From the IMG/VR virus record IMGVR_UViG_3300017971_000191: a stretch of 64,000 nucleotides of DNA; one strand, given 5' to 3'. The notes beneath the pieces are model-generated. The model saw only the letters and a list, made by a program, of their open reading frames with translations, was not told the origin of the DNA and did not search any database. The position numbers were made by a program, and so were the translations under genes. The first letter of the stretch is position 1. The number at the start of each line of letters is the position of its first letter. The stretch is from a virus. Its lineage: Duplodnaviria > Heunggongvirae > Uroviricota > Caudoviricetes. Below are positions 9,582-32,817 of this stretch, one piece after another.

Positions 9582-11081
9582 CTAAAGTGTAATGTGATTT
9601 TGCCGCGCACTCAACCGAGCTGTCAATGGGAAATCCGAATCGGAACACGCAATTCGCTGGAGTGCAGCCAGCTTGTAGATCGCATAGTCCCGAGCGAGTT
9701 CCTCGGCCTCGGGTTCGTCCGCAGCCGATTTCTCAAAACTACTCCGCACGTCCGGGGCCTTTTGGCCGCGGATTGACGCCAACATCGCCCGTTCCCGGAC
9801 GGCGTCCACGTCCAACGAATACTCCCTGGCCCCAAGGTTGGCCGCCGTACGAACCGCCGCAGAGGCCAGCTTCTCGGCCAGGGGGTACTTGTTTTGCTCG
9901 ATTCGACGCTCGATGGAGTCGTCGTCGATCATCCGCTGGTAGATCCCGGGCAGGTGCTCGGAGGCGGCCTTCACCAGGCCCTCTCCGTGCCCGAGCCAGC
10001 GGCCGAAGTCTCGAATGTGAAGGATGATCTTCCGGTCGGCCAAGGCCCCGAGATCCGCCGCACCCTTCTCCGAGCCGGGCTTTTCCAGCACGTCGACGTC
10101 GAAGGGGGACTGGGGCTCCAGGCCACAATAGGCCTCCGCCGAGCGCTGGGCCTCGATCGCCTCGCAGGAGGCCATTCCGTAGCCGAGCTTGATTTGGGCG
10201 GCGATCTTGGTGCTCCACTCCCCGGGCAGCCCGTCCTGGTACATGATGACCTGGATCGGAGCGGTATCCTGGGAGGCCAGCTCCGCAGCAGCCTTGAAGT
10301 CGAACACGCCGCCATCTGCCGCAGCCTTCTCGAAGTAGTTGGCCTTGGCCCCGGAGGCGATCCGGTCTGCCTGGCGGAAAACCCGGCTCATGTCGAACCA
10401 GGTGGGGAAGAGGTTCTTCACGCCCAGGTGGTGCATGTCTCCGGCGACCTTCACCACGCGGGTCAGATTGTCCTTGCAGCCGCCGGCCTTGCACATGCCG
10501 GGGGTGCAGTAGTCGTCGCGGCTCTTGGCCTGGTTGCCACAGAAGGTGCAGACATCGAAGGGGACACGGCAGGCCATCGACACCGGGAGATCGCCGTCGC
10601 GGGCGAGCTTCTCCAGCTCGATGTCGGCCACGAAGCCCCCGTTGCGATCGCAGGCGCTCTTCTCGGCGTTGAGCACGGCCAGCAGCTCCACCCGCTGCAT
10701 CTGCGGGTTCCAGGCCGAGGCCTTGATGATGCCGAAGTGGGGATGCCCCTTCTCGGGCTTGTTCTTGTGGTTGCGGAAGAACCGGGCGAACTTCACGAAG
10801 GTGGGATGGTACTTCTCGCAGGCACTCTTGGGGAAGCCGTCCCCGTTGCGGTTGATCCCGTACGCCTCCATGGCGCCCAGGGCGATGATGTGCAGGGGGA
10901 CCTCGTCCTTGGCGACCTTGATATTGTCCAGCACGTCAAGGAAGACGTGGGCGGCGCCGGCCGACTTGACGAAGTCAGCGCGGTCCGTCCCGATCAGCCC
11001 GCGGCTGGAACACTTCACGGGAACGACCACCGGTCGATCCCAGTCCCAACCTGCCGGTGAGACGTACTTGATCATGGACAT
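9582..11081 (-). CDS. hypothetical morphogenesis-module protein (499 aa) with a Cys cluster (CTFCGNQ...CTPGMCKAGGC); prohead protease candidate by position only
   Basis: It lies between the putative portal and the scaffold/capsid genes. No catalytic motif was assigned. Confidence 0.45.
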   Translation of the reverse strand: MSMIKYVSPAGWDWDRPVVVPVKCSSRGLIGTDRADFVKSAGAAHVFLDVLDNIKVAKDEVPLHIIALGAMEAYGINRNGDGFPKSACEKYHPTFVKFARFFRNHKNKPEKGHPHFGIIKASAWNPQMQRVELLAVLNAEKSACDRNGGFVADIELEKLARDGDLPVSMACRVPFDVCTFCGNQAKSRDDYCTPGMCKAGGCKDNLTRVVKVAGDMHHLGVKNLFPTWFDMSRVFRQADRIASGAKANYFEKAAADGGVFDFKAAAELASQDTAPIQVIMYQDGLPGEWSTKIAAQIKLGYGMASCEAIEAQRSAEAYCGLEPQSPFDVDVLEKPGSEKGAADLGALADRKIILHIRDFGRWLGHGEGLVKAASEHLPGIYQRMIDDDSIERRIEQNKYPLAEKLASAAVRTAANLGAREYSLDVDAVRERAMLASIRGQKAPDVRSSFEKSAADEPEAEELARDYAIYKLAALQRIACSDSDFPLTARLSARQNHITL

Positions 11082-19107: not shown

Positions 19108-22100
19108 CTAGGCCGATTCTAGCCCATTTTGCGCGGCCTCGCCAATAGCAAAAGGCTCCTCCTCGAAGAGGATGGGAAATCCGCCGACCAGCGGCGCCCC
19201 GCCCATCTCGTCGAGACCTCGCTTGAAGAAGGGGTTGAAGGAGACCTCACCACGCCAGATTTCCGCCGGCGTGGCAAAGCGTTTGAGGCCCCAGCCGGCT
19301 CCGGGGAGGTGGATCGGCTCCACACCTGGGACACCCGGACGCTTCAGGTGAACATCCTCCATAATCCGTTCACCAGCCCCCATACCCTCGTGGGACAGCT
19401 CGTAGCCGGACATCTCCTGTCGCTGGCGGAGCTTTTCCAAAGACTGCTTCTGCCCGGGCGTCAGACCGCCGGCAGCCTCGATCTTCTCCAACTCGCGGAT
19501 CTGCTCGGGGAGGGCTGCTTTCTGGCTCTGAGCGGTCTCGGCCCGCTCCTGCAAGATCGGCTGGGCCTTGCCCTTCAGCGAGCTATACTCCTGGAGGGCT
19601 TCCATTCCAGCCTCGGCCGGCTCCTTGATGACGTCCTGGATGTCCATCATGCCCTGGGCGATCCCGGCGTACGGAAGGACCATCCCTTTGGCCTTATCCC
19701 AGAGCGTGCCGTCTTTCCCGTAACCGTGGCGTTCCTTGACCCGGCTCCACACCCGCGACAGCGGATCGAGGATCGACTTGTCGTTGTGCAACTGGTAGTC
19801 CCGCTGGTTGATCGGGTTGCTGGGATCGAGGCCCTCGGCCGAGCGGCGCTGATAGAGTTCCTGTTGCTGCGAACCCAAACCGTAACTCCGGCCGGCTTCC
19901 TGGGCACCGCGGATCGTCGCCTCGGTGGTACCCGCGACAGTCTCTGCGCCCGCAGCCCCCGTACTGAAGGGGCTGAAAAACTCTCCAGCGAAACCCACAG
20001 CGTCCAGGGGATTCCCTGCGGCGGCTCCTTCGATCTGCGACTGCCGACGCTGGTTGACTTGCTCGCCAGCGCTACCGTGGCCGGTAAGACCATGCTGAAC
20101 AACATTCCTGCCGGTACCAATCGCGTCCAGGGCGATCGCCAGATGGCCCAGCGGCCCTACGCCCGGCTTGGCACCCTTGGCGGCGCCCCACAGCTTGCTG
20201 GCCCCGGGGATGCGATTCATCAGTCGGGTAAGCATCCCCGGTCCGCCCTTGGGAGACATGAACTTCATGTTCCGCAGCCACTCACCGGCCCGCGTGTTGC
20301 GGAGCCACGGCAAGTAGCCAGTCCCCTTCACTGGAGCCCGCCAGAGCGTGCTCAGTCCGCGACCGATCGGGGCCAGGCCCTGACGGATCATGGCCGCCTG
20401 GCCCAGCTCCCGCGACGGGTTGGCCGGGTTGGGCATGAAACGGAGGAACATGTCCTCGGCCCAGTCAGGCGTGTAGTTCCTCACACTCTCGGGCAAGGCA
20501 TCTCGCAGGTTCGTGGGGGCTTCGTCACTGAAGACACCCGTGCCGGGCTTGGTTCCAAGGATCGTATCGAAGGCGTTGTCAACGCCCTGCTCGATCCGCT
20601 GGTCCATGGCCGCCTGGGGGTCCGCGGCAGGAGCAGCCGGCTGCTGGACTTCAGGGGCAGCTTCGGGGGTCGGCTGTTGCTGGTCAATCTGGTAGCCGGC
20701 TGGCGGGATGCCGCTGCCGCCTGCTCCCTGCCAGCCGCCGGTACCGGAGAGTGGGGAGTATCGTTGGCCGCTGGTCAAGACCCGCATGGACTGCGGCGAC
20801 ATCAGCGTTCCCATGGTCATCACGCCACCCACGCCGGGAAGCATCTTGTTGACCTGTTGAATCAGCGGCACAGCCAGCGGGCTGCCCATCATCCCCGGGC
20901 TTGCGTAGGAACCCCACTGCGGCCGAGCCGCCGGCATGGAGCCGACTTGCTCAACACCGCCAGCACCTCCCGCAGCGGCTGCTCCTGCGGCATACGGATT
21001 TCCGCCTGTACCCGCCGAAGGTACAGTTGTACCCATCTGCGCAGAGGGACTCGGACCGACCCCCTGCGCAGAACGCTCGGCGGCTCCCTGGACTCCGCCC
21101 GAGGTGCCGGGGGGAGTCGAAGTCGGTTTCTTGTACGGAGCAGGAAGCGAGGCGATTTTCTCCAGCTCGGCGTCCGAGGAGAGTTTGAACCGGCCACCGA
21201 ACCAGCTCTTGCGTACCGGCTTCGGCTTACGCTGCTCGGTCTGCTCACTGGCCAGGCTCGGCCGGGGTGGCTCGAATCCGGGGCCAGGCTTGCGGACGAC
21301 GCTGTTCGGCGTGCGGCCGAAATTGGTCGAGCGGGCCAGGGCGGGGACAAAGGAGCTGCCCCGCTCCTCGCTGGTGCCGCCTCGCTGGGCCGCGCTGAGC
21401 AAGCTCTTCTTCAAGCCGGAGCCGTAATGCCGGACCAGCCAGTCGGGGTCGTGCTGCATGGAGTACATGCCACGAATCATCTCCGGCTCGAAAGGCGGCG
21501 GGTTCTTGTGTACACTGAGCGTGTTCACTCCGAATCGCTCGAACTCCCGGAGCATCGAGGGCCGGACCTTCGTGCCGATCGTATAATGGAGGACAGGGCG
21601 TTCAAGGTACTGGCCAACCGCCCTCCGAGGTTCGACATCCTCGTAGTCCTCACGAGGCGTGTACCGGTGTTCGAGCGTTGAATACGGAATGACGTCACCC
21701 GGAACTCCGTCTTCGTATTCCTCGGTGAGTCTGACATGGTTGATAAGCCCCCTACTGAGCAGCTCGGTGTTTCTCCGGTGAGCCTTGAGCCCTGCATCCT
21801 GCAAAGCCTGGCGGAAAGCCCACGTGAAGTAACGACGTCCCTCGCCAACGCCTTTATGTCGAACGATCTGACCCGGATTCGGGAGACCCTCCGAAAGCAC
21901 GTCCCCGGCTTCGACCGTATCACCCTTCTTGACTTTCAAGTCGAAGCCCTGGCCCACATAGTGCTGCTCGCCGTCGATGGTGACGTAGTTACCACCCGCG
22001 GGAGCTTTCTCGATGCGACCCACGGTCCCATCGACCTGGGCATGTGCCGCGCCGCCTTTCATTACCCGTGGCGTCTGGACTAGCTGGTTGATCCGCTCGA

Positions 22101-23148
22101 ACCCCGAGACAGCCTTGTCCTCCCCGGCCACGCCTCCGCCGTGCTTGGCCGAGATCTGCGCTTGGGTCAGAGGCTCGGAGAGAGCCTGGGCGGCTGTGAG
22201 TCCAACCATCTCACCAAGTCCCGGAAGGTTACCGCGTTCACGTACACCCACGTCTCGCGAGTAAACGCCGCCTTCGGGCGAACCTCCGATAATCGGAGAC
22301 CTGACCAGGATTCGATCATGTCCCATTCGTTGGAGGTGCTTGAGGATCTTGGGGGTGAGATGGGTGTTTCGTTTGTAGGGTCCTGCGTCATAGGCCAGCA
22401 GCGCTCCTTCGTTATCCATGTCGTTGGTGTCGACGGGCATGCCGCGGAGGACCTTGGGTGCCTCCTCCTCGTCCTCGTCGACGACGACCAGCCGGTGAGC
22501 CACCTGGTTGAGCTGCTTGCTGAGGAAGCCGGCGTCCCGGGTGGCGGACTTCAAGGCGATGACGCCGTGGCGGGCACCGTAGGTGCCGGCCCAGTATTCT
22601 TCCGGCGACAAGCCTTCACTGTAGCTGCGAAGGATGGGGATGGGAAGCGGCCGTCCCCGGTGGTCCACGTAAAGCATGTCGGAGCCGCGGAGGCTTGCCA
22701 GGTTCATCTTGTTGCCGCGCGAACCGGACAGAACCTGAAGGGCCAGCGGGTTGCCCTCCTCCAGCGACTCCTTGAGGATTGCCTCTTGTTGGGGTTCTAT
22801 CTCCCGGCCGATGGCCCGCACGATCAGCTCTTCCCGTCTCCTGTCGTCCAGGTCATCGCGGTCAAGGATCTTCGCCAGGGCGTTGGTGAGCTTCTGGCGA
22901 GTCTTGACGGCGGCACGGGCTTTGCCCAGGTGTTTGACGCCGAAGGCCATGCCCCCGGACTCCTGGGACGCGCGGCTGCCAATCTCCAACAGCTTGTGGG
23001 AGATCTCCCGATACTTGTCGGGATGCTTCTCGGCGACCTCGCGCAACAGACTGGAGAGCCCCTTCTTGTCGAGGACCCGGTCGTAGTCGCGCATATCGTC
23101 GGGCAGCGTCTCGTTGACGAGATGCTGCCCCAGAGTTGCCGTTCGCAT
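19108..23148 (-). CDS. RNA polymerase beta-prime C-terminal half (regions F, G, H) plus a roughly 800-aa Gly/Pro/Gln-rich C-terminal extension
   Basis: SGSRGN...GARHG...LVV matches beta-prime region F. SEPLTQAQISAKHGGGVAG matches region G (GEPGTQLTMRTFHIGG). Confidence 0.7.
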   Translation of the reverse strand: MRTATLGQHLVNETLPDDMRDYDRVLDKKGLSSLLREVAEKHPDKYREISHKLLEIGSRASQESGGMAFGVKHLGKARAAVKTRQKLTNALAKILDRDDLDDRRREELIVRAIGREIEPQQEAILKESLEEGNPLALQVLSGSRGNKMNLASLRGSDMLYVDHRGRPLPIPILRSYSEGLSPEEYWAGTYGARHGVIALKSATRDAGFLSKQLNQVAHRLVVVDEDEEEAPKVLRGMPVDTNDMDNEGALLAYDAGPYKRNTHLTPKILKHLQRMGHDRILVRSPIIGGSPEGGVYSRDVGVRERGNLPGLGEMVGLTAAQALSEPLTQAQISAKHGGGVAGEDKAVSGFERINQLVQTPRVMKGGAAHAQVDGTVGRIEKAPAGGNYVTIDGEQHYVGQGFDLKVKKGDTVEAGDVLSEGLPNPGQIVRHKGVGEGRRYFTWAFRQALQDAGLKAHRRNTELLSRGLINHVRLTEEYEDGVPGDVIPYSTLEHRYTPREDYEDVEPRRAVGQYLERPVLHYTIGTKVRPSMLREFERFGVNTLSVHKNPPPFEPEMIRGMYSMQHDPDWLVRHYGSGLKKSLLSAAQRGGTSEERGSSFVPALARSTNFGRTPNSVVRKPGPGFEPPRPSLASEQTEQRKPKPVRKSWFGGRFKLSSDAELEKIASLPAPYKKPTSTPPGTSGGVQGAAERSAQGVGPSPSAQMGTTVPSAGTGGNPYAAGAAAAGGAGGVEQVGSMPAARPQWGSYASPGMMGSPLAVPLIQQVNKMLPGVGGVMTMGTLMSPQSMRVLTSGQRYSPLSGTGGWQGAGGSGIPPAGYQIDQQQPTPEAAPEVQQPAAPAADPQAAMDQRIEQGVDNAFDTILGTKPGTGVFSDEAPTNLRDALPESVRNYTPDWAEDMFLRFMPNPANPSRELGQAAMIRQGLAPIGRGLSTLWRAPVKGTGYLPWLRNTRAGEWLRNMKFMSPKGGPGMLTRLMNRIPGASKLWGAAKGAKPGVGPLGHLAIALDAIGTGRNVVQHGLTGHGSAGEQVNQRRQSQIEGAAAGNPLDAVGFAGEFFSPFSTGAAGAETVAGTTEATIRGAQEAGRSYGLGSQQQELYQRRSAEGLDPSNPINQRDYQLHNDKSILDPLSRVWSRVKERHGYGKDGTLWDKAKGMVLPYAGIAQGMMDIQDVIKEPAEAGMEALQEYSSLKGKAQPILQERAETAQSQKAALPEQIRELEKIEAAGGLTPGQKQSLEKLRQRQEMSGYELSHEGMGAGERIMEDVHLKRPGVPGVEPIHLPGAGWGLKRFATPAEIWRGEVSFNPFFKRGLDEMGGAPLVGGFPILFEEEPFAIGEAAQNGLESA

Positions 23149-23165
23149 CCTTGCCTCCAGGCGGC

Positions 23166-23492
23166 TTACGCCACCTTCAGTTTGCCGAGATCCTTGCTCG
23201 GCCGGGCTCCCTGCCAGGTAGTGCTGCCGGGGATGTAGGGGTCATCGTGCGGGGGCTTGGGAGCGTTGGTCTGGTCGATCTCAACGCCCACGCACTGCAC
23301 GCCCTTCACCTCGTACGCATATCCCCAACGGTCGTACGCGATCTTCATGCCGCCCTGACGGGCCGCCTTCGCGTACAAACGCTGAAGTTCGGGCTGGGGG
23401 TCATCGTGTTTGCGGGGCCACAAACGGCCTCGCAGAGCACGATATGGCCAAGTAAGGAGGCGCATAAGCTGCCAAAACTTTCGTCTCGACAT
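23166..23492 (-). CDS. small hypothetical protein
   Basis: 108 aa. The TGTCCGG repeat cluster lies in its 5' region. Confidence 0.45.
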   Translation of the reverse strand: MSRRKFWQLMRLLTWPYRALRGRLWPRKHDDPQPELQRLYAKAARQGGMKIAYDRWGYAYEVKGVQCVGVEIDQTNAPKPPHDDPYIPGSTTWQGARPSKDLGKLKVA

Positions 23493-23510
23493 CGAAGTCC
23501 TCCCTCATCG

Positions 23511-23605
23511 GTCTGCCGGAAGATGTCCGGATCGTGGCCGGATTCTCCCGTGGGAACTACAAAAACCGGACATTCTACCCGGGCAACGTGTCCGGAAATG
23601 TCCGG
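23511..23605. promoter_or_regulatory. cluster of four to five (A/G)TGTCCGG repeats in direct and inverted orientation; putative operator
   Basis: The copies are GTCTGCCGGA, GATGTCCGG, CCGGACATTC, GTGTCCGG and AATGTCCGG, all within a 113-bp intergenic region. Confidence 0.4.
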
Positions 23606-23896
23606 TTACTCGTAACGAACGCGATCAAGATGATAGCGCCGCAGATAACCCGTGTTGGTCAGCGCCAACAATCCCGTGATGATCCGGTCGCAAATCAGAC
23701 TTGCATCGCCGGAGATGTCGCCCTGGCCCGGCACGTTGATCCGAACGTGCAGGCCGAGCCGCAACTTCTTGGCGATGGACTGGACGAGCCGGCCCAAATG
23801 AGTGTCGTTGGTCACGTGGAACCGGGCAATCGGCCGCGTGCGCCGGCGGCGTCCAGTGCCGTCCGGCTTGTAGTTTGAACTAAATGGCAGTGCCAT
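23606..23896 (-). CDS. small hypothetical protein
   Basis: 96-aa ORF. Confidence 0.4.
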   Translation of the reverse strand: MALPFSSNYKPDGTGRRRRTRPIARFHVTNDTHLGRLVQSIAKKLRLGLHVRINVPGQGDISGDASLICDRIITGLLALTNTGYLRRYHLDRVRYE

Positions 23897-24347
23897 CGTT
23901 AGAGGCTCCGGCTACAGGGGGTCCTATCGGGAAGTGTTTCCCATTGGCGGTCAGAATCTCCTTCTTCGTGTCCGCGATCCAGACTTCGATGTCGATCTGG
24001 TGGCAAACCGTCAAGGCCCGGTAGACGTATTTCGATTCCTTACCCATGTCCTCAACGAGGAGCAAGACGACGGGTTCTAGCTGCACCATCGTCGAGTACC
24101 AGAGGCACTGGCCGATGGCTTCGGCCCACTTCGGGGCCCAGTCGATTTCCACCGCCGCCGTCTCGGTGAGCAAGTCGATTCGTGTTCCATCCCACAGGCG
24201 ATGCTCGTACTCCGCCTTCAACGCAAAGGCGATCCTCCGAGCCCAGGCCAGCTCGTTAAGCTGGTGCGCCCCCATGACGACGGGTTCCTCAGAGAACTTC
24301 CGCGCCAACTCTGTTTCAACGTGCTCCAGCTCCAGTTTCGGGATCAT
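23880..24347 (-). CDS. hypothetical protein
   Basis: 155-aa ORF. Confidence 0.45.
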   Translation of the reverse strand: MIPKLELEHVETELARKFSEEPVVMGAHQLNELAWARRIAFALKAEYEHRLWDGTRIDLLTETAAVEIDWAPKWAEAIGQCLWYSTMVQLEPVVLLLVEDMGKESKYVYRALTVCHQIDIEVWIADTKKEILTANGKHFPIGPPVAGASNDGTAI

Positions 24348-25236
24348 TTTCTTCCTCTTCGCTCATGAAATCGTCGAGTTCCTCCTCCTCGTCTTCTTCT
24401 TCGTCGTCGACCACGAACTGCTCGGGGTCGTCCAGGGGATCACCCGGCTCGTCGTCGGCTACGACCTCTTCCGGTTCCTCGTCTTCTTCGATCTCTTCCT
24501 CCTCGTCTTCATCACCACCGAAGACGAAGGCGGCAGGATCGCCCAGGTCGGCGCCGCTGGGGTCGATCTCCCCGGCTTCCGGCACCTCGGCAAGCTCCTC
24601 CGTGGACGGCGGGCCGGTGAGATCCTCAGCGAGCTTCTCTCCCCCGCCAAGCTCCACGCCGCGGACGGCGTCCTCGACCTCCGTGTAGCCGGCCGCCTCC
24701 GGGGTCAAGCCAAGCTGAATGTCGCGGCCCTGATCCTCGCTGATCGTCTCGCGAGTGACGGCGAACTCGATCTTCTGGCGGATATGCGGGATCAACCCCT
24801 TGTTGCCGATGGCGACTCGCACGGGGGAGTAGCCGGCCGCCACCATCTCGACGGCTCGCGACATGACATTGTCGATGTCAGCGGCCCGCGAGATGACCAA
24901 AGGGCCGACGCCGTGGGCCGCCGATTCGGGCGCCTCGGCCGTCTGCCGCGCCACGGTGACCGTCTGCGCCGGGGCTTCGTGACTCTTGTAATACTTGTCG
25001 GCCGAGATGATCGTGTTGCCTTCGTGGCCGCCGCCACCCGGAGCAACAGCCGGGGGTGTGGGGATCGGCTTGAGCTGGTGAGGCTTCTTCAGGGTGGAGT
25101 CGGCGATCGTACGGGGGATCACCGAGGACTGGCCCGAAGCGTAGTAGCGCTTGTCGGCGGAGCGGATGGTGTTGGGGTCGGTGACCTCGTTGATCTTAAC
25201 GGGTTGCCTCCTGGTCGGTCGCTTCTTCTTTGCCAC
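24316..25236 (-). CDS. hypothetical protein with a basic N-terminus and an extremely acidic C-terminal tail (DEDEEEEIEEDEEPEE...)
   Basis: 306 aa, located between the two RNA polymerase genes. It may be a polymerase-associated factor. Confidence 0.45.
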   Translation of the reverse strand: MAKKKRPTRRQPVKINEVTDPNTIRSADKRYYASGQSSVIPRTIADSTLKKPHQLKPIPTPPAVAPGGGGHEGNTIISADKYYKSHEAPAQTVTVARQTAEAPESAAHGVGPLVISRAADIDNVMSRAVEMVAAGYSPVRVAIGNKGLIPHIRQKIEFAVTRETISEDQGRDIQLGLTPEAAGYTEVEDAVRGVELGGGEKLAEDLTGPPSTEELAEVPEAGEIDPSGADLGDPAAFVFGGDEDEEEEIEEDEEPEEVVADDEPGDPLDDPEQFVVDDEEEDEEEELDDFMSEEEENDPETGAGAR

Positions 25237-25248
25237 GGGACTTCTCCT

Positions 25249-25521
25249 TCACTGAGGGCTGCGAGGATCACGGATCAACCGGGCACCGGGAGGCGGAGGC
25301 GGCAGACGAACGGTGTCGCAGAAGACCACCATGTCCACGCCCAGCTTCCTCAGTGTCTCGTTGAAGTCCTCGTCCTTCGCATGTGATGCTCGAATCGTTC
25401 CTTCGGGTCCATAGTGTCCTGCCACCATGACGGGCGTCCCAGCGGCGTTCTCGCAGATGACCATGGCGGCGTCGATCACCAACGGAGGTTCGCCAACTTG
25501 GGAGATGATTTTCAGTTTCAT
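25249..25521 (-). CDS. small hypothetical protein
   Basis: 90-aa ORF. Confidence 0.4.
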   Translation of the reverse strand: MKLKIISQVGEPPLVIDAAMVICENAAGTPVMVAGHYGPEGTIRASHAKDEDFNETLRKLGVDMVVFCDTVRLPPPPPGARLIRDPRSPQ

Positions 25522-26255
25522 GCAGCTTCCGCTCGCCGGCCGAGAACCGCCGCGATGGCGGTGGCCTTGTTTGCCATGCTGCCGAAATCAGGCAAGATGC
25601 CCTTGTCGGCAGCCACACCCTGGTCGTGGGCCGGCTTCTCCGGACCCTGGGCCGCGGGGATCGGCTCGATGGGACTGATGCCGCCACCACCGCCGGCCGG
25701 GGCACCTCCGCCAGCCGCAGCCGGATCATCCGACTGCATGGCCGCGTAACCGGGGCCGCCCTGGGCCATCTGCTGGAGATCCTCCGGCGTGACGACCATG
25801 TCGCTGGCCGGGATGTTGATCCCCATCGCGTCGGCGATCTTGGCCAGAATCTTGAGGACCTGAAGCATGACCACGTTCTGGTCGATCTTCGGCTTCAAGT
25901 CGCCTTGGGGATTCCCGCCCGGACCTCCCGCACCGCCGCCCATACCCTGGATTGCGGCCTGGACCTGCTGCTGGATCATGGTGTTCATGTCCGGCATGGC
26001 GCCGCCGCCGCCCGCCATCGGATCAGCCGGGGGCGCGCCACCGGGAGGCATCCCACCCGCAGCCATCGGATCGCCGCCGGGAGGCATCCCACCCGCAGCC
26101 ATCGGATCGCCACCGGGAGGCATGCCGCCACCCATGGCCTCTTCCCCGCCGGGGATCATCCCCTGCTTTTCCTGACCTTCCGGCTTGGCGAACGCCGCGA
26201 CACGCTCGCGGGCCAGACCGAGCAATTCCGGGTTCACGCTTCCGTACTTGAACAT
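25518..26255 (-). CDS. Gly/Met/Pro-rich repeat protein; paralog of the C-terminal part of 8219..9526
   Basis: It has three DPMAAGGMPPGG repeats, and the motif LQVLKILAKIADAMGINIP matches LELAQILEELGVTPEEL in 8219..9526. Confidence 0.5.
   Translation of the reverse strand: MFKYGSVNPELLGLARERVAAFAKPEGQEKQGMIPGGEEAMGGGMPPGGDPMAAGGMPPGGDPMAAGGMPPGGAPPADPMAGGGGAMPDMNTMIQQQVQAAIQGMGGGAGGPGGNPQGDLKPKIDQNVVMLQVLKILAKIADAMGINIPASDMVVTPEDLQQMAQGGPGYAAMQSDDPAAAGGGAPAGGGGGISPIEPIPAAQGPEKPAHDQGVAADKGILPDFGSMANKATAIAAVLGRRAEAA
26017..26136. repeat. about three tandem copies of a 36-bp unit (CATCGGATCGCCGCCGGGAGGCATCCCACCCGCAGC)
   Basis: The repeat is visible directly in the sequence. It is coding, giving the PMAAGGMPPGGD repeats. 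Confidence 0.6.
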
Positions 26256-26321
26256 AGTCGAACTCCCTTTCAAGGTCTTCTCAGTGTATCCGAGGCCCGT
26301 GCCGTGCGGAATACCGAATGG

Positions 26322-29300
26322 CTACTGATCCAAAATCTGTACCTGGTCGTCCAGGGACAGCTTGCCGGCTGCGTAGGCCGCCCTGGCGTCGGCCAAAGTG
26401 TGAAACTTCCGCACCGATTGTTTGCTTCGTGACTTGGTGGCGTGGTAGAGACCGCCGACGAACTCCTGCCCGGGAGCATGCACCGGGGACTTGAAATCGG
26501 CCGGGCTGAGCAGGTTGGCCGAAGGCAGCATCCGCTCGTAGGCCTCCTTGACGGCCGCCGCGTCCGTGGGGACGTGGAAGTTCATCTGGTCGCCGTCGAA
26601 GTCGGCGTTGAACCCCTTGACAATCAGGGGGCTCACTTGCATCGTGCTCCCCTTCACCAGCTTGGGGCGGAAGGCGAGGATGCCAAACTTGTGCAGCACG
26701 GGGGCGCGGTTGATGAACACCGGCCGCTCGTCCATTTCCTCGACGAGCGTTTCCCGGGCCAGGGGGGTACGATCCTTGATCTGCTGGAGGGCCCGGGTCA
26801 GAGGAACCCCCTGTCGACGCATACGCCTGGCGATGAATTTTCCGTAAATATCGAAGGCCGCATCCTCGGGCAGGCCCACCGTGTCCATGTCGAAATCGGG
26901 GTTGGGGGTGATCACGGACCGGCCGACGTTGTCCACTGTCGTGGAGATCAGCTTACGCTGCACGGTGCCGAACTTGGGAGAGCTTCCAAAAACGCTTTTG
27001 AGGATTCCCCGCACGTTCTTCTCGCGGCTCTTCTGGCTGATCGGATCTCCCAGGCCGGTGACTGCCTTGAAGGCGTGGTAGACGGCCAGCCGCTCCGGGC
27101 CAGCACCCTCGTCCCCCAGCTCCTTCTTCATGGCCGCCAGGTTATCGTTGGCCTCCATCAGCTCCTTGTAGAGGTAGTTGGCGTCGGAGATCATCGGCAG
27201 GTCGTTGTCCATCATCGAGACCGGGCGGAACGCCGGCGGCAGCACCGGGGCCCGCTTCAACACCCAGTCGCCAGGATGGATACCGAGCTTCTTGGCCCGC
27301 TTGAGATAGTCGAGCTTGCGGACAGCTTGGTCCCTCTCCGTCTTGCTGCCTTGCGAGACTTGGGCCCTTGCCATGGACAACTCTTTGTCCAAGTTGAGGG
27401 CTTGCAAGGCTTTACCGATGGCCTGGGCGCCGGTGCCGAACTTGGGCAGCTCATGGTCCCCGGAGATGACGGCCTCGAACTTGGCCTTGGTCAGCCCGAG
27501 CACGCGACGGATCGGCTCCTCCATCACCGGATTGGGCATCGGCTCGGTCAGGCGGATCGCAGACCATCGCCGACCGGAGTGGCCGCCGGTGAGCTTCTTG
27601 TCGAACAGACCGCCCCGGATGGGACGCAGGCCCCGGCCCCAATCGACGCCGTCGTTCTTCATCAGGTTGCGATCCCCGGCCAGCTCGTCGACGTCCTTGT
27701 CGGTCAGCGCCATGATGTTCGTCTGCGTGCCCTCGCGGACGACGTTGATCCCCGAGGCCCGGAGTTGCTCGACGAATTTATGGTAGGCCATCGGCACCCG
27801 AGGCATCGGCGGGTTGTGCCCCATCATGAACTGGAGCCAGTAGTCCTCGTTCCGCTGACCACGAATGGCGCCCACGTCTTCCAGGTTGTGGACCGCTCCA
27901 TGGCTAAGCAGGGCGTTGGTGTCCAGCAGGGCGACTCGCTTGGAACCTTGCTTGCCGCCCTTGGCCGGGGCGTCCTCGGCCGTGTAGGCGCCGCCGCCTC
28001 GTCCCTGCTCCTTGGCTTCTGCTTGATGGTGGAGCTTCATGAAGAAGCGATTACCGGTAGGGATGCCGCGGATCTTGGAGTCGTTGCTAGGGTCGATGAT
28101 GTCCTCGGTGTCCGACAATCCGGCCTTGCGGAGCTGCTCGCGGGCCCAATCCACGTAATCGCGGCTGTCGTCCCAATCCTCGACCCGAATCGGCTTGCCC
28201 TGCTTGGCAGCCAACTTGCCCAACCACAGCTCGATCTTTTGCGACGGATTGGTCCGGCCGATAATCCCCAGCGGATTCAGCAGCACCTCGAAAGGCTTCC
28301 CGTCCTGCCCCTGCGGCATCTGCGCGTCGGGGATGATCGCGGAAATGACGCCCTTGTCTCCGTATCGTCCTGAGAGCTTGTCTCCCTTTTGCATGGGAGA
28401 CGTACTCTTGACGAGGACCACCGGCCCTTTCTTGCCGTCAACAACGTCGGTAACGATTCCGGGATCGTTATGATCCCAGACAATACTATGATCTGCATGG
28501 GACGCCTGCTTCCTCTTGTGGACCTTGTTGTGCGACAGCTCCCGCTGGCGTGCCGCCAAGATCAACGGATGCCCCTTCTCGACCTCGGTTCCCGGTTTGA
28601 CGACTCCGCGGTCGTCCAGCGTCTCCAGGATCTTGCGCTCGTATCGGGACGGAAACAGGCTGACATAGGTCTTCTTACCGATCTTCGTTCTGTCGTCGAC
28701 CTCCAGCTCATTCTGGTACATGTGCTCCGAGGCCAGCTTCTTGGCAAAACCCTCGGAGATCACGATGGCGTCTTCGTGGTTTTTCCCCTGCCAGGAGACG
28801 TAGGCCACCCGGGCGTTGCGGCCCAGGGCCGTGGCGCCGCGCTCGTCGGTGTAGTTCGAGCGGGCCAGCAAGGCACCAGGAGCAAACCTCTGGCCGGGCC
28901 GGACCAGGGGTGTCTGGTGCAGGTATGTCTTCCGGTTGAAAGGGAAATGGTGGTACAGCTCGATGCTGTCCTCGCTGCCGTCGTCGTAGCGGACCTTCAT
29001 GCCGTCGTCGTCGATACCCAGCACCCGGCCGCCGCGTTTGGCGTGAACCGCCCCCATCTGCTTGGCGTACTCCTCCTCGTAGCTTCGGCCGCCACGGGTC
29101 CCGGGCATCGCCGACTGGACCCAGGGGGACTCAGGCTCGACCAGGGGCAGCGCCTGGGTGAGCATCCGCGAGGCCATGGCCATCCGCTGCCCCTTGACGG
29201 CGCCCTTCATGGGGACCAGGTTGCCCAGCGGGGAGAAGGCGTCCTCGAAATTGGGCATCACCAGGTTGACGTCCCGCTTCTTGGCCCAGATCATCTTGCT

Positions 29301-30764
29301 GCCCTTCATGGCGATCACCCGCTTTCCGGGGCGGGCCAGCGCTCTGGGGAAGGTGATCACCGAGTCGGCAACATCCTGCGGAGAAAGCCACTTCAGCTTG
29401 CCGCTACGGGGGTCCTTGAACTGCGTGTAGATCCGGCCGTTCTTCCCCTTGCGGGCGTTGCGGGTCATGTAGACGTCCACGCCCACACGAAAGCTCTCCG
29501 GCGTGCGTAGCGGGTCCACGAACCCGAAGTGGCTGGGTTGCACGCTACGGGCCTCCGCGGGCACGGCATCTAGCGAGGGGATACCTCCTTCTCCGAGCCG
29601 GCTGATGGAGTATTGCTTGTCGAAGATCTCGGCGGGGTTGATTTCCTCCAGGGGCTGTCCGAGACCTGAGTGCAAGATTGCAGACTCGACCTGTGGCCGT
29701 AGGGCTGAAGAAGGCATGCCCGAGAGGTTACCCTTGCGGGCGGCCTTCCAGAGAAGCTGGCGGCGGAGCCGACCGTGGTCCTTGGCAATCCTCTCCGCCA
29801 GAAGATCCTCCGGGCCCAGGAAATGCTGGTACGCCAGAGAATCACGGTCATCCACATCAGCCTCGTCGCGAGAAATAGCAAGTAGCTTTCGAGTCGTGTC
29901 AAGGATGGCCTCCTTGCTCATGCGATCGTACGGTTTTCCCAGGGTACGCCCGGTGACCTCGGGGTCCAGCTCCATCGAGGTCCAACGATCGACGAGCTTC
30001 TGCGCCGTCGTCCGCTCCTCGTCCTCCTGGTCGGCGCGGGTCAGCACGTGTCCCGCGTACTTCTTGATGGCGGCACCTTCATCCTTCGGATAGTTGGCCG
30101 CATACAGGTCGTCGCCCCAGATCTCGCGAAGCTCCGCGGGAGTCGCTCCCATCGCTTTAAGAAGCGGCATGAGGGGGAGCTTGGCGTTGTGGAGCCGAAC
30201 GTAGAAAACGCCCTTCTCAGGATCAAGAAAGTAGCGATGAGACACCCCTTTTCCAGGAAGGATGTTCGCATGGGCTTCGATCTCTCCATTTTCACGGACA
30301 CGAGTGAAGACACCGCCCCGCAGCCGCTGCTGGTTGCGAAGCGTATTCTCGTTGCCCCTATGGACGAACGTCCCCCGGGGCGTCAGATGCGGGACCGTGG
30401 CCACGACCTGGCGACGGCGATCCAGCACGCCGCCGGTCTCGTTGTCGACGAGTTCCCAGGTACCACGCAATCGCCGGCCGAGAGTTCGGCCGCCGAGGAT
30501 GGCTTCCTTCTGTTGGCGCAGGGTGAAGGTGTCCGGGTCCTGCCAGTCCACCTTGCTGAGCCGCAGGGTGTGGGTCTGATTTGAGACCGGCTCGATCCCC
30601 TGGGCCGCTACCAGCACCTGATCATAGATGTTGCGGCGCGTGGCGTCAGTGTCTCCGAACTCCCGTGTCTCCTCGTCAGTGGGAGGTGGAGCGGCAACAG
30701 GTGCAGGTGCCCCCGACAGCAGATTGGACGGCGTCGGCGGCATCAGGTTCAGATCGAGCGGCAT
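26322..30764 (-). CDS. fused RNA polymerase subunit: a compact beta subunit joined to the N-terminal half of beta-prime
   Basis: Beta-subunit motifs: RGTFVHRGNENTLRNQQRLRGGVF and GDKLSGRYGDKGVISAIIPDAQMP...LLNPLG. Beta-prime motifs: VLPPAFRP and RAPVLHKFGILAFRP...NADFDGDQMNFHVP. Confidence 0.8.
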   Translation of the reverse strand: MPLDLNLMPPTPSNLLSGAPAPVAAPPPTDEETREFGDTDATRRNIYDQVLVAAQGIEPVSNQTHTLRLSKVDWQDPDTFTLRQQKEAILGGRTLGRRLRGTWELVDNETGGVLDRRRQVVATVPHLTPRGTFVHRGNENTLRNQQRLRGGVFTRVRENGEIEAHANILPGKGVSHRYFLDPEKGVFYVRLHNAKLPLMPLLKAMGATPAELREIWGDDLYAANYPKDEGAAIKKYAGHVLTRADQEDEERTTAQKLVDRWTSMELDPEVTGRTLGKPYDRMSKEAILDTTRKLLAISRDEADVDDRDSLAYQHFLGPEDLLAERIAKDHGRLRRQLLWKAARKGNLSGMPSSALRPQVESAILHSGLGQPLEEINPAEIFDKQYSISRLGEGGIPSLDAVPAEARSVQPSHFGFVDPLRTPESFRVGVDVYMTRNARKGKNGRIYTQFKDPRSGKLKWLSPQDVADSVITFPRALARPGKRVIAMKGSKMIWAKKRDVNLVMPNFEDAFSPLGNLVPMKGAVKGQRMAMASRMLTQALPLVEPESPWVQSAMPGTRGGRSYEEEYAKQMGAVHAKRGGRVLGIDDDGMKVRYDDGSEDSIELYHHFPFNRKTYLHQTPLVRPGQRFAPGALLARSNYTDERGATALGRNARVAYVSWQGKNHEDAIVISEGFAKKLASEHMYQNELEVDDRTKIGKKTYVSLFPSRYERKILETLDDRGVVKPGTEVEKGHPLILAARQRELSHNKVHKRKQASHADHSIVWDHNDPGIVTDVVDGKKGPVVLVKSTSPMQKGDKLSGRYGDKGVISAIIPDAQMPQGQDGKPFEVLLNPLGIIGRTNPSQKIELWLGKLAAKQGKPIRVEDWDDSRDYVDWAREQLRKAGLSDTEDIIDPSNDSKIRGIPTGNRFFMKLHHQAEAKEQGRGGGAYTAEDAPAKGGKQGSKRVALLDTNALLSHGAVHNLEDVGAIRGQRNEDYWLQFMMGHNPPMPRVPMAYHKFVEQLRASGINVVREGTQTNIMALTDKDVDELAGDRNLMKNDGVDWGRGLRPIRGGLFDKKLTGGHSGRRWSAIRLTEPMPNPVMEEPIRRVLGLTKAKFEAVISGDHELPKFGTGAQAIGKALQALNLDKELSMARAQVSQGSKTERDQAVRKLDYLKRAKKLGIHPGDWVLKRAPVLPPAFRPVSMMDNDLPMISDANYLYKELMEANDNLAAMKKELGDEGAGPERLAVYHAFKAVTGLGDPISQKSREKNVRGILKSVFGSSPKFGTVQRKLISTTVDNVGRSVITPNPDFDMDTVGLPEDAAFDIYGKFIARRMRRQGVPLTRALQQIKDRTPLARETLVEEMDERPVFINRAPVLHKFGILAFRPKLVKGSTMQVSPLIVKGFNADFDGDQMNFHVPTDAAAVKEAYERMLPSANLLSPADFKSPVHAPGQEFVGGLYHATKSRSKQSVRKFHTLADARAAYAAGKLSLDDQVQILDQ
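26986..27004. repeat. degenerate copy of the palindromic motif (CCAAAAACGCTTTTGAGGA), in the CDS and translated ILKSVFG
   Basis: Imperfect match; weak. Confidence 0.25.
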
Positions 30765-30775: not shown

Positions 30776-31618
30776 TCAAGCGGCCTCTTCTTCGACGTCC
30801 ACCGGTACCGGGACGGCGTGGATTTCCGCAGGCTGCGTGGCGTACGCCCGACGACGGCGGCGTTCAAGAGCCTTCTTGAGGACGTTCTTCCGCTGTCGCT
30901 TGCGCGCTGCGCTGTAGGCAAACCAGCCGGCCATCAAGCTGGCCGGCACGGCGTAGTACCCGTAGGTTCCCAGAGTGGCCCCTGCCGTGTCCGGGTTGAA
31001 GAGCGCTTGCTTCTCCATGCAGAGATCGTAGAGGGCGTCCAGGTCGGCAGCCAGCTTCTCCATCGGCTCGTCGCTGCTGATCTTGACCGGCTCGTCGTAC
31101 TGGCCCACCAGGGCCCCACGGAAGCGCTCCCGCTCCCGTTCCACCTGGGAGTCGACCTCTTCCTTGCGGCGCTTGTCGAGGATCTTGTCGACCAGGTGCC
31201 AGCCGAGACCTCCAGCCGCCAGTCCGCCGACCATCGCCGCCGGCTGGTACCAGGGGATGCCGATCGGCGTGGTGGCTTTGTTGCCCTTGAAGAAGTCGCC
31301 AAGCCAGCCAGCGGCCTTCGCCAGCTCGGGCTCTTCCTCCTCGTCTTCCTTGGCGGGGACGGGCAGCGGCAGAGGTGAGACGGCCGGGTAAGTCGGCTTT
31401 CGCGTGCGGACGTTTCGCCGGACAAGGTTGAGCAGCCCGTAGATACCGCGGGCTCCCGCACCGGCTCCGGCCGAGATGACGGCGATGCGGCCCAGGTCCT
31501 TCAACGCCTGGGTCTTGAGGTTCCGGGTGGCCGCTTCCTGAAGGACGGCGACCGGGTCCGTGGCCTCCTTTTCCTGGCGCACCTCGTCAATGATGCGCTG
31601 GGATACTTTGCTGTCCAT
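30776..31618 (-). CDS. hypothetical protein
   Basis: 280-aa ORF. Confidence 0.45.
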   Translation of the reverse strand: MDSKVSQRIIDEVRQEKEATDPVAVLQEAATRNLKTQALKDLGRIAVISAGAGAGARGIYGLLNLVRRNVRTRKPTYPAVSPLPLPVPAKEDEEEEPELAKAAGWLGDFFKGNKATTPIGIPWYQPAAMVGGLAAGGLGWHLVDKILDKRRKEEVDSQVERERERFRGALVGQYDEPVKISSDEPMEKLAADLDALYDLCMEKQALFNPDTAGATLGTYGYYAVPASLMAGWFAYSAARKRQRKNVLKKALERRRRRAYATQPAEIHAVPVPVDVEEEAA

Positions 31619-32000
31619 AGCTGATTGTCCCTCCTGGACCTATCGCAGCCTGTGCGGGCTGACCGTCTTCGAGGAAGTATTCCGCCCACTCGATGTAGAC
31701 GACATGCTGCCCCCGCTTCTTCGACCTCCAACGCTCGACGAAGAGCAACTGTGCCCAGTTGTTGAGGATCTTGTCGAGCACGTCGAGGTAAGCCTTGTTC
31801 TCCTCCTTGATCCACGTACGAAACGTACCATTCTGCGGATCGGCCACCCGGACGACCCGCGAGTCGAACTCCGCCTCCGTGAAGAACGGGGGGCTGGCGC
31901 CGCGGAAAGGCAGACCGTCGACGTCGGCCCGACCCCAGTACAGCTTTCCGCGCCCATTCCCTTCCGTCCTCGCTGCAAACTTAACCAGGCTGTTTGCCAT
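31587..32000 (-). CDS. hypothetical protein
   Basis: 137-aa ORF. Confidence 0.45.
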   Translation of the reverse strand: MANSLVKFAARTEGNGRGKLYWGRADVDGLPFRGASPPFFTEAEFDSRVVRVADPQNGTFRTWIKEENKAYLDVLDKILNNWAQLLFVERWRSKKRGQHVVYIEWAEYFLEDGQPAQAAIGPGGTISYGQQSIPAHH

Positions 32001-32009
32001 AAGTTCACG

Positions 32010-32420
32010 CTACAGGAACACTCGTCCTGTTTGCTTGCGACGAGCCCGGTACTCCCGCATGGCTCGCTGCCTCAGCAAACGTGCCGTTTGGCGTCGGTAC
32101 TCGTCGGCGACCTCCTGTTTCTTTACTTCCTCGGGGTCCTGGTCATCGACATCCGTGGCTTTGGCCAGGCCGTAGCCGGCGACTCCGCCGAGGATTGGCG
32201 GGGCCGCGATGGCGAGAGGCAACCCGTAGCTCAGCAACGGTGCGGCGACCGCCTTGCCGGCTTCCAGGGCCTTGACGGGGATACTGGTGATGTCCCCGAC
32301 GATCCCGCCCATCTTGTCCATGGCTTCCTTGACGCGCTCGTGGGCCTCTTCGAGAGTCAGACCCTCTTCCACGCAACGGCTGAGGAAACCAACCTTGAAC
32401 GCATCTCGTGAGCTGAGCAT
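32010..32420 (-). CDS. hypothetical protein
   Basis: ATG (MLSSRDAFKV) chosen; the upstream Arg-rich extension is rejected. Confidence 0.4.
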   Translation of the reverse strand: MLSSRDAFKVGFLSRCVEEGLTLEEAHERVKEAMDKMGGIVGDITSIPVKALEAGKAVAAPLLSYGLPLAIAAPPILGGVAGYGLAKATDVDDQDPEEVKKQEVADEYRRQTARLLRQRAMREYRARRKQTGRVFL

Positions 32421-32430
32421 CCTTGCCTCG

Positions 32431-32817
32431 CTACAACTGGTATTGGGAGCCGGAGCCGGGCATGACCACCGTCTTCTTACGCCGGCGGAGCCTGTCCTTG
32501 ACGGCATCCTTGTCGGTGGGCATCCCCTGTTCCCGTGCCTTCTGGGCCAGGGCGACTCCCTCCTCGATAAACTTCTGCTGCCGATCGACGTCGATGCCGA
32601 TCTGCTTGCCGACCTGACGATCGCCCCTGATCATCTGGTTGATGGCGTTGAGCCGCTCCAGAAACTCGCGGACCGACAGCGACTCGTACTCTCCAGTGTC
32701 CCGGTCTTCGTGGTGGACCAGGCCGTTCTCGGCCCAGTACCGGTCGCGTTTCTGATTGTCGCGGGGCCCAAAGTAGATGACCTTGTGCTGGCCGCCGAGC
32801 AAGGGGACCTTCGCCAT
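32431..32817 (-). CDS. hypothetical protein
   Basis: 128-aa ORF. Confidence 0.45.
   Translation of the reverse strand: MAKVPLLGGQHKVIYFGPRDNQKRDRYWAENGLVHHEDRDTGEYESLSVREFLERLNAINQMIRGDRQVGKQIGIDVDRQQKFIEEGVALAQKAREQGMPTDKDAVKDRLRRRKKTVVMPGSGSQYQL

Follow-up and report, generated by a model that had tools for sequence, protein, structure and literature searches.

We analyzed a stretch of 64,000 nucleotides (hereafter the window) from the IMG/VR record IMGVR_UViG_3300017971_000191, assigned to a virus of the class Caudoviricetes, in which two large genes encode the parts of a divergent multisubunit RNA polymerase (RNAP). The window has a G+C content of 63%, and almost every real gene lies on the minus strand. 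The upstream gene (the fusion gene) encodes a complete beta subunit that continues in frame into the N-terminal part of beta-prime, and the downstream gene, here called beta-prime(C), encodes the remainder of beta-prime followed by a long tail. Both open reading frames (ORFs) were found, on the minus strand, at the coordinates given by an initial annotation made from the sequence letters, and the six small genes that it placed between them were recovered, all on the same strand, by an independent gene caller run on the public contig (Table 1). Judging from sequence similarity, the two ORFs together supply, as two polypeptides, all of the catalytic core of a phage-encoded DNA-dependent RNAP of the multisubunit, two-barrel bacterial type.

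Pfam domains were found along the 1480 amino acids (aa) of the fusion in the order Rpb2_3 (aa 372-437), Rpb2_6 (601-929), Rpb1_1 (1158-1215) and Rpb1_2 (1341-1411), with scores of 162.5 bits for Rpb2_6 (cut-off 23.4) and 91.5 bits for Rpb1_2 (cut-off 25.3). The 1346-aa ORF matched Rpb1_5 (aa 179-364, 60.2 bits against a cut-off of 28.5) and, weakly, Rpb1_4. A search of PDB aligned the first part of the fusion with bacterial beta chains (E=3e-70) and a later part with beta-prime and cyanobacterial gamma chains (E~1e-50), and it aligned beta-prime(C) with the C-terminal half of beta-prime (E=1e-34). Since the Pfam scores lie far above their cut-offs, and the PDB matches (1e-47 to 1e-70 for beta and beta-prime chains), the motifs and an alignment running across the junction all agree with them, we consider these proteins to be an RNAP. 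The motifs first recognised in the sequence hold in a profile search (Rpb2_3, Rpb2_6, Rpb1_1, Rpb1_2 and Rpb1_5), and the strong divergence from cellular enzymes noted at the same time was borne out, the polymerase being 26-31% identical to bacterial enzymes in conserved blocks.

E. coli numbering is used throughout, with Salmonella RpoB and RpoC as the ruler. The beta portion carries the rifampicin-pocket region, the motifs GKNHEDA (corresponding to GYNFEDS), GRYGDKGVIS (corresponding to GRHGNKGVIS) and NPLGIIGRTN, and a C-terminal clamp ending in '...LRASGINVVREG'; the lysines of GRxGxKG and the ED pair (E. coli E813/D814) are present. It lacks the E. coli sequence insertions SI1 and SI2 and matches a cyanobacterial beta of 1100 aa in one unbroken alignment, so it is minimal rather than truncated. 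Its compactness had been noticed before with an estimate of about 900 aa; the actual length is about 1045 aa, and the missing SI1 and SI2 account for the difference from E. coli. The motif alignment of the rifampicin pocket revealed the substitutions D516E, H526K and R529S. These three are resistance positions in E. coli rpoB, and the phage polymerase is probably insensitive to rifampicin.

At the junction, the beta C-terminus '...LRASGINVVREG' is followed by about six residues (TQTNIM) and then by beta-prime from approximately E. coli residue 23. Just past the junction, about 29 residues are deleted that comprise the beta-prime Zn-ribbon with all four of its cysteines (E. coli C70/C72/C85/C88). 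Both the junction and the deletion are kept in every member that we aligned: the window, the homologous proteins P0010 and P0045, the related loci L007, L009, L010, L014 and L015, and the cultured phages Arash and D69. As the most distant members are included, the fusion must be ancient and is no assembly artefact. The beta-prime N-part holds the lid region PVLPPAFRP and the catalytic NADFDGD motif (aa 1386-1392; window 26589..26609; E. coli 458-464). Regions A-D of beta-prime had been attributed to this gene; the attribution stands as far as NADFDGD is concerned, whereas region A is present only in part, owing to the deleted Zn-ribbon.

In beta-prime(C), motif alignment placed the bridge helix at aa 175-226 (beta-prime 762-813) and a trigger loop, VGLTAAQALSEPLTQAQISAKHGGG, which retains its histidine; the insertion SI3 is missing. 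The fusion stops at about beta-prime residue 553 and beta-prime(C) begins at about 585, so that the break falls right after the active-site double-psi beta-barrel (DPBB) domain. When the two phage polypeptides were concatenated, several bacterial beta-prime chains aligned through the break, with about 29 extra residues there in Streptomyces beta-prime. The cyanobacterial gamma subunit (624 aa) aligned only to residue 554 at this point, which places the phage break in the same inter-domain region, some 70 residues before the end of gamma; the first 155 aa of beta-prime(C) had no cyanobacterial match in the PDB search. The split proposed earlier to be cyanobacterial-like does fall in the same inter-domain region, but its position appears not to be identical. 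The stop and start at the break ('...VQILDQ' and 'MRTATLGQHLV...') map to the continuous sequence '...VATIGGKRTTVGRHMV...' of the related locus L007 with zero residues lost. An intein or split intein was considered as the cause of the break and rejected, since nothing is added at the break when it is compared with the continuous L007 protein.

The homology to beta-prime ends at aa ~600-631 of beta-prime(C) in every relative compared, leaving a tail of about 720-745 aa where some 800 aa had been estimated. The Gly/Pro/Ala/Ser/Gln-rich, low-complexity composition is strong only at aa ~600-1000, and beyond it the sequence is helical or ordinary; a compositional bias had originally been ascribed to the whole tail. 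The G+C pattern over the three codon positions is of the coding type throughout, and L092, with a beta-prime(C) of 1354 aa, retains the tail in frame. Other relatives, with polymerases that are still 64-68% identical, have a beta-prime(C) of only 1121, 965 and 629 aa. We found no homologue of the tail in loci L001-L016 and no Pfam or PHROG match. Its coding pattern, its in-frame conservation in L092, its loss in close relatives and its lack of family matches together indicate that the tail is real, fast-evolving and, as far as sequence comparison can tell, dispensable for catalysis.

Table 1. Features of the polymerase locus and of its surroundings in the window. Positions are those of the window; correspondences are to E. 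coli-numbered beta and beta-prime.
Feature	Position	Strand	Basis or remark
Fusion gene, 1480 aa: complete beta, then beta-prime N-part in frame	26322..30764	-	Pfam, PDB matches, homologues
Beta portion, aa 1-~1045	27630..30764	-	Alignment to Salmonella RpoB, motif alignments
Fusion 86-216 = beta 83-224			Salmonella RpoB alignment
Fusion 282-735 = beta 420-884			Salmonella RpoB alignment
Fusion 791-1011 = beta 1060-1340			Salmonella RpoB alignment
Beta/beta-prime junction	27585..27647	-	Family alignment with Salmonella RpoB+RpoC
Beta-prime N-part, aa ~1046-1480 = beta-prime ~23-553	26325..27629	-	RpoC alignment, PDB beta-prime/gamma chains
Fusion 1112-1477 = beta-prime 181-550 (NADFDGD, 1386 = 458)			Salmonella RpoC alignment
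Beta-prime(C) ORF, 1346 aa: beta-prime remainder and long tail	19108..23148	-	Pfam, PDB, RpoC alignment
Beta-prime C-terminal core, aa 1-~620: funnel, bridge helix, trigger loop	21289..23148	-	Rpb1_5, PDB beta-prime 660-1169
Beta-prime(C) 133-355 = beta-prime 720-955			Salmonella RpoC alignment
Beta-prime(C) 308-493 = beta-prime 1101-1286			Salmonella RpoC alignment
Lineage-specific beta-prime(C) tail, aa ~621-1346	19108..21288	-	Codon-position GC, relatives
Intervening gene 1 (g245), 245 aa: Gly/Pro/Met-rich, low complexity, GGMPPGGDPMAA repeat	25518..26255	-	Gene call
Intervening gene 2 (g90), 90 aa: beta-rich by eye, Pro-rich end	25249..25521	-	Gene call
Intervening gene 3 (g306), 306 aa: basic N-terminus, alpha/beta domain (aa 110-182), ~70-aa poly-acidic tail	24316..25236	-	
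Intervening gene 4, 155 aa	23880..24347	-	One marginal PHROG match (phrog_5928, E=0.0064)
Intervening gene 5, 96 aa	23606..23896	-	No family match
Intervening gene 6, 108 aa	23166..23492	-	No family match
Four small genes directly upstream of the fusion gene (280, 137, 136, 128 aa)	30776..32817	-	Synteny
Conserved 883-aa protein downstream of beta-prime(C)	15490..18141	-	C-terminus matches Arash gp218 (virion 'structural protein')
gp222-like gene	9582..11081		Arash gp222 counterpart
Major capsid protein	6070..7011	-	Matches Arash gp226 (30% identity, 310 aa); phrog_2522 major head protein
gp233-like gene	2064..3107		Arash gp233 counterpart
gp234-like gene	165..1022		Arash gp234 counterpart

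Homologues of the fusion are numerous. More than 1000 were found in a collection of 5.8 billion proteins, most of them about 1475-1500 aa long; the top 120 are 57-70% identical to the window protein and nearly all fall within that length range. In an exhaustive search of representatives clustered at 50% identity, the best 150 all scored above 700 bits, giving a family of at least 150 such clusters, with members from marine, hypersaline and sewage samples. The same two-gene layout also occurs in cultured phages, namely Arash (gp206 + gp216; OQ632216, PMC10585845) and the Vibrio phages D69, D148 and D181, in which the fusion measures ~1525 aa and beta-prime(C) ~606 aa. The window fusion aligned with Arash gp206 at 96% coverage and 31% identity (E=0), and beta-prime(C) aligned with gp216 over aa 5-615 (E=8e-39). 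The corresponding database entries of Arash and the Vibrio phages are annotated as 'RNA polymerase subunit beta' or 'hypothetical protein'.

The genes are arranged in four ways across the family. Single chains are encoded in L007:9938-16174 (2078 aa), where the gene is flanked by a tail-fibre gene and the large terminase, in L010:9833-16084 (2083 aa) and in L013:9863-17458 (2531 aa, with an intein). A second arrangement, with the beta-prime(C) gene directly abutting the fusion gene, is found in L014. In the window, Arash and many others, three to nine unrelated genes are inserted between the two. Finally, L005, L006, L012 and L016 also split beta near aa 480, giving the order beta(N), beta(C)-beta-prime(N), beta-prime(C), with the N-part several kb upstream and a second ORF of 1011-1035 aa. 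The three single-chain lineages are 33-34% identical to each other and equally far from all split forms; by parsimony, therefore, the single chain is ancestral and the split derived, and we infer that the beta-prime split arose by secondary fission of an ancestral beta-beta-prime gene.

Many homologues reach 1800-3350 aa through inteins placed in the most conserved motifs, some of them with up to six matched stretches. The insertion sites lie after DPLRTPE, inside NPLGV..R|TNP, at GGxxG|SKR and directly after NADFDGD; carriers include P0005, P0077, P0093 and many of P0144-P0290, as well as the loci L004, L008, L011 and L013. Inteins tend to occupy conserved, probably essential genes, and their presence in the catalytic motifs points to such a gene here. 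Being an intein hot spot, the polymerase family can help both the study of inteins and the reconstruction of phage evolution.

The window is a section of a 174-kb contig of the European Nucleotide Archive (ENA). Over 24 kb the ENA copy (L003) differs from it by 9 mismatches and by one copy of a 36-nt repeat. Several window proteins recur, identical, on two further contigs (L095/L096), one of 236,137 bp in ENA (ERZ27256798:k141_2288034) and one of 59 kb from hypersaline sediment (Joint Genome Institute, JGI; sample 3300017963); the phage is therefore a jumbo phage with a genome of at least 236 kb. Our analysis covered the 64-kb window and about 10 kb more of the 236-kb contig. A DNA-level search of deposited phages with the window returned zero matches. 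Past the left edge of the window, large genes without annotation encode products of 945, 925, 465 and 1444 aa that are presumably tail proteins. Within the window, capsid, virion and nucleotide-metabolism genes surround the polymerase genes, all on the same strand, and the region is collinear with Arash gp206-gp216-gp218-gp222-MCP (gp226, the major capsid protein)-gp233/gp234. As the MCP gene and a gp222-like gene lie downstream of the polymerase genes in this order of genes, the polymerase belongs to the head module. The 883-aa protein encoded downstream of beta-prime(C) is as widespread as the polymerase and has no recognisable fold.

The small genes around the polymerase are much less conserved. 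Among the six intervening ones, g245 is conserved only within the close subfamily formed by L004, L009 and L092-L094, and it had no match in Pfam or PHROG searches; it carries a 36-nt in-frame tandem duplication (the GGMPPGGDPMAA repeat, window 26036-26123) that is missing in the ENA copy (233 aa). The conservation of g90 is limited to L009, L092, L093 and L094, and the precomputed annotation gives it no Pfam domain, our own Pfam and PHROG run having covered the overlapping ORF 25268..25729 instead. The N-terminal part of g306 is likewise shared with the close subfamily only, and the 5.8 billion proteins held a single homologue of it (38% identity over 62%). An AlphaFold2 (AF2) model of g306 had a mean predicted local distance difference test (pLDDT) score of 54 and was confident only at aa 110-182, the rest being predicted as mostly disordered; Foldseek found no significant fold match for it in PDB. 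Its acidic tail recalls the Bacillus delta subunit or sigma region 1.1. Intervening genes 4-6 had no homologue in any related locus compared. Nothing separates the polymerase parts in L007, L010, L013 and L014, and none of the six genes adjoins the polymerase there or in Arash and D69. The four genes directly upstream of the fusion keep their order, at 26-62% identity, in L004, L008, L009 and L092-L094, while L011 keeps only the 280-aa gene. The 280-aa and 136-aa proteins bear hydrophobic, membrane-like segments; none of the four has a Pfam match, and they are absent beside the polymerase in Arash, D69, L007, L010 and L014. In our interpretation, such features are more typical of proteins inside the virion or of ejection proteins than of subunits for transcription.

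Further from the polymerase, the region 33300-45100 upstream of it encodes a class II ribonucleotide reductase with an ATP-cone (38050..40380), two S-adenosylmethionine (SAM) methyltransferases, a thioredoxin-domain protein, an SPFH/Band-7 protein (41484..42119) and a 2H-phosphoesterase (44405..45073). Also there, at 42657-44588, a 643-aa protein joins a lysozyme/transglycosylase-like domain to a phosphoheptose-isomerase-like C-terminal domain; its PHROG matches (virion hydrolase, DarB-like, minor-head) suggest that it is probably a virion-associated cell-wall hydrolase. Genes for sugar modification follow one another in the region 48942-63636: GT2 glycosyltransferases, a sulfotransferase-like protein, a GDP-mannose-dehydratase/epimerase, a GT-D-like protein, a PglD-type hexapeptide acetyltransferase, an HpcH/HpaI aldolase, a SAM methyltransferase and a DegT/DnrJ aminotransferase. 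These may form a pathway for an unusual amino sugar, possibly for modification of the virion or of the DNA. The only long intergenic gap of the window (53305-53860) contains a tRNA at 53550-53624 on the minus strand (Rfam, 50.8 bits; ARAGORN flags an abnormal anticodon loop), followed by a hairpin and T-run terminator at 53478-53455.

We searched the window for other transcription components. No member of the alpha, omega or sigma families (RNA_pol_A/L/Rpb6 for the first two) was found when essentially all window ORFs were covered with Pfam, PHROGs and precomputed Pfam annotation, in agreement with the initial annotation, which had recognised no alpha or omega subunit. Using Arash gp10, Arash gp196 and D69_0246 as queries, phmmer gave nothing below E=0.35 against all six-frame window ORFs, and hhalign of three candidate ORFs, the 280-aa protein among them, against a phage-sigma alignment gave probabilities below 1%. 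About 150 of the 181 kb of the Arash genome likewise have no annotated alpha or omega. Sigma-like proteins are encoded by Arash and Vibrio phages (of the sigma-70 family in Arash and D69), and Arash, D69, D148 and D181 each have one polymerase locus per genome. No AT-rich islands occur in the window, and matches to sigma-70-type promoters were not above those in shuffled sequence, with the exception of one near-consensus site, TTGACT-17-TACAAT at 53851-53823, which lies before the tRNA and is the sole intergenic match in 64 kb.

Mass spectrometry of Arash virions bears on the role of the enzyme: gp206 yielded more spectra than any other protein (3516) and gp216 yielded 1210, at the level of the MCP, and a sigma-70-family protein, gp10, was also detected (PMC10585845). 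The best explanation, and one that we consider reasonably probable, is that the window encodes a two-chain core without alpha or omega that would be packaged in the virion and ejected with the DNA for early transcription; the identity and the completeness of this core are established, whereas its packaging, its subunit composition and its timing are our inference. Such an enzyme would work without alpha and omega, with the covalent link between beta and beta-prime taking the place of the alpha dimer as a platform for assembly. It would be carried in the capsid as its Arash homologues are, enter with the DNA and transcribe early genes independently of the host polymerase. Promoter recognition would need a factor encoded outside the window, possibly a sigma-70-family protein as in Arash and D69. 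An ancestral single-chain gene would have been split within beta-prime, with variable small genes inserted later. A role in packaging or ejection may fall to the low-complexity tail and to the small proteins encoded nearby, which are Gly-rich or hydrophobic.

Several points weigh against this explanation. Virion packaging is extrapolated from Arash, a relative with only 31% identity, whose authors caution that abundant enzymes may merely co-purify with particles (PMC10585845). Use of host alpha, omega or sigma may still be compatible with the sequence, and a second polymerase set, or sigma or alpha-like proteins, may be encoded in the ~170 kb that make up the rest of the genome. The window yielded no promoter motif. 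The role proposed for the tail is conjecture, and close relatives do without a tail. Finally, the direction of evolution, fission rather than fusion, was read by parsimony from a few loci, with no rooted tree to orient it.

The most serious alternative, although an unlikely one, is a non-virion polymerase made after infection for middle or late transcription, as the non-virion RNAP of phiKZ and AR9, in which case the position among head genes would reflect late co-expression only. The Arash authors warn that virion preparations can be contaminated by highly expressed enzymes (PMC10585845); many metabolic enzymes were also 'detected' in Arash virions, and we identified no packaging signal or cleavage motif. 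On the other hand, gp206 tops the virion spectra and gp216 is comparable to the major capsid protein, and the polymerase genes sit within head or virion blocks in the window, Arash, D69 and L007. Moreover, complete relatives have a single set, and if their early genes are transcribed by the phage, the enzyme must be brought in.

It is rather improbable that the phage supplies only the beta and beta-prime catalytic chains, with host alpha2, omega and/or sigma completing a chimeric enzyme. The window polymerase is closer to bacterial RNAP (PDB matches to 1e-70) than to the phiKZ type (PHROGs at 1e-26 and weaker), the window has no phage alpha, omega or sigma, and it does contain one good sigma-70-type promoter (53851-53823). 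However, the known phage multisubunit RNAPs bind no host alpha, omega or sigma (PMC7598289, PMC13282480), the fusion would remove the need for an assembly platform, the Zn-ribbon, an element of the bacterial clamp, has been deleted from beta-prime, and identity to any bacterial enzyme is only 26-31%.

Still less probable, in our view, is that some of the six intervening or four upstream genes encode dedicated polymerase subunits or factors, as functional analogues of alpha, omega, delta or sigma. Small ORFs between the polymerase genes, and 24316..25236 (g306) with its acidic tail in particular, had been suggested as unrecognised subunits, and this reading could draw on g245, g90 and part of g306 staying between the polymerase genes in the close subfamily, on the synteny of the upstream four there, and on the resemblance of the g306 tail to delta or sigma region 1.1. 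The comparison with relatives speaks against it: the small genes are not beside the polymerase in Arash, D69, L007, L010, L013 and L014, the parts being immediately adjacent or continuous in the four latter loci (L014 included), and three of the intervening genes are unique to this phage. A single marginal PHROG match was obtained, and the 280-aa protein showed no sigma similarity by hhalign. Structure prediction and fold search left g306 as a near-orphan, mostly disordered and without a fold match, and the Gly/Pro-rich or hydrophobic composition of these proteins suits internal virion or ejection proteins better. Lastly, the idea that the locus is just a bacterial rpoBC disturbed by frameshift or assembly artefacts, or host DNA that contaminates the viral bin, has practically no chance of being right: the order beta then beta-prime is indeed bacterial, but phage capsid, virion and nucleotide-metabolism genes lie all around on the same strand, identity to bacterial enzymes is only 26-31%, a fusion of the same length recurs in hundreds of independent contigs (over 1000 proteins) and in cultured phages, and near-identical copies of the locus exist in independent assemblies (the 24-kb ENA stretch and the proteins of the 236-kb contig), so the virus-encoded origin first proposed is upheld.

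Returning to the virion-packaged two-chain core, we tentatively suggest a broader picture, which may or may not prove correct: the family could be a third major lineage of phage multisubunit RNAPs besides phiKZ/AR9 and mReC, descended from a single beta-beta-prime chain of ~2080 aa whose sequence was plainly of the bacterial type. The enzyme would work with neither alpha nor omega, would be carried in the capsid and would have been broken up repeatedly. Under the same tentative picture, a phage sigma-like factor could take part, and the break-up would have proceeded by gene insertions, beta splits and inteins. If true, no RNA polymerase of the 'cellular type' found in nature would be simpler, and the family would amount to a natural experiment on how far such enzymes tolerate fusion and fission. 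RNA polymerases of the cellular type normally rest on an alpha-dimer platform, and how phage enzymes assemble without alpha is a question posed in reviews of the phiKZ type. A family in which beta and beta-prime are covalently joined, encoded in one, two or three polypeptides and alignable to bacterial enzymes, offers a handle on alpha-less assembly. The cultured members (Arash on Salmonella, D69 on Vibrio) make packaging, rifampicin-independent early transcription and the activity of a minimal core testable.

The topology had been put forward as unlike that of described phage polymerases. This holds for the literature, as our search, made without subscription journals, found no description of the beta+beta-prime(N) / beta-prime(C) layout, and a 2026 review of jumbo phages (PMC13282480) makes no mention of a beta-beta-prime(N) fusion type; it does not hold for the databases, given that Arash and three Vibrio phages carry the same layout. 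The Arash paper itself annotates the genes as beta and beta-prime and leaves the fusion unmentioned (Yousefi et al. 2023, PMC10585845). Current ideas stand, in that multisubunit polymerases encoded by phages and packaged in virions, fusions of beta to beta-prime, and splits within beta-prime have all been seen before, each on its own; what is new here is the occurrence of four topologies in one family and of a layout that is widespread in uncultured phages yet undescribed in the literature searched.

The closest known systems, Arash and the Vibrio phages, share with the window the split site, the Zn-ribbon deletion and the variable genes between the polymerase genes, with only 29-31% identity to the window polymerase. 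Beta-prime(C) of Arash has no long tail, and a portal gene lies just upstream of the polymerase in Arash and not in the window. The Arash genome is 181 kb long and low in GC, compared with at least 236 kb and 63% for the window phage. Directly after its beta-prime(C) gene, Arash encodes a 'DNA helicase' (gp217, 141261-142679) whose abundance in virions matches that of the polymerase chains; neither the window nor D69 has a counterpart of it there.

Polymerases of the phiKZ/AR9 type resemble that of the window in being phage two-barrel enzymes with beta-prime split after the catalytic DPBB (PMC7598289); they have no alpha or omega, and one set is packaged in the virion, as we propose for the window enzyme. 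In them, however, beta is cut into two or three pieces and nothing is fused, whereas the window beta is continuous and fused to beta-prime(N); they carry two paralogous sets, one in the virion and one outside it, against a single set in Arash-type genomes; and the window family is nearer to bacterial RNAP, as reflected in the PDB and PHROG scores given above. The 'beta/beta-prime' annotation of Ralstonia phage RP13 was followed up as a possible fusion and discarded, as it refers to small phiKZ-type fragments. The mReC phages (Weinheimer & Aylward 2020, PMC7481178) are alike in being uncultured Caudoviricetes of ~100-300 kb with a compact, deeply diverged, bacterial-like beta and beta-prime, and they come from the same hypersaline-sediment sample series as the window (Ga018043x). 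Their gene layout sets them apart from the window family: beta (1010-1370 aa) and an NADxDGD-containing beta-prime (900-1010 aa) are encoded by separate adjacent genes, with no fusion and no beta-prime split (PMC7481178).

The virion RNAPs of the crAss-like gp66 type, and that of P23-45 fused to a tape-measure protein, are virion-delivered two-barrel enzymes in which one chain contains the two barrels, or the polymerase together with a virion protein, and they show that a polymerase can bear additional sequence related to the virion. They have no readily detectable similarity to bacterial beta and beta-prime, whereas the window enzyme is recognised by Pfam at high scores. Among cellular enzymes, the gamma and beta-prime subunits of cyanobacteria and plastids are like the window in that beta-prime is divided after the active-site domain and before the funnel and bridge helix; in cyanobacteria, unlike the window, beta is not fused to gamma, and gamma appears to run ~70 residues further at the boundary. 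Natural rpoB-rpoC fusions are found in Helicobacter and Wolbachia, where, as in the window, beta passes directly into the start of beta-prime through a minimal linker. These retain a full-length beta-prime, the Zn-ribbon and the alpha2 and omega partners, whereas the window enzyme has been split again inside beta-prime; the single chains of L007, L010 and L013 are their direct phage counterpart.

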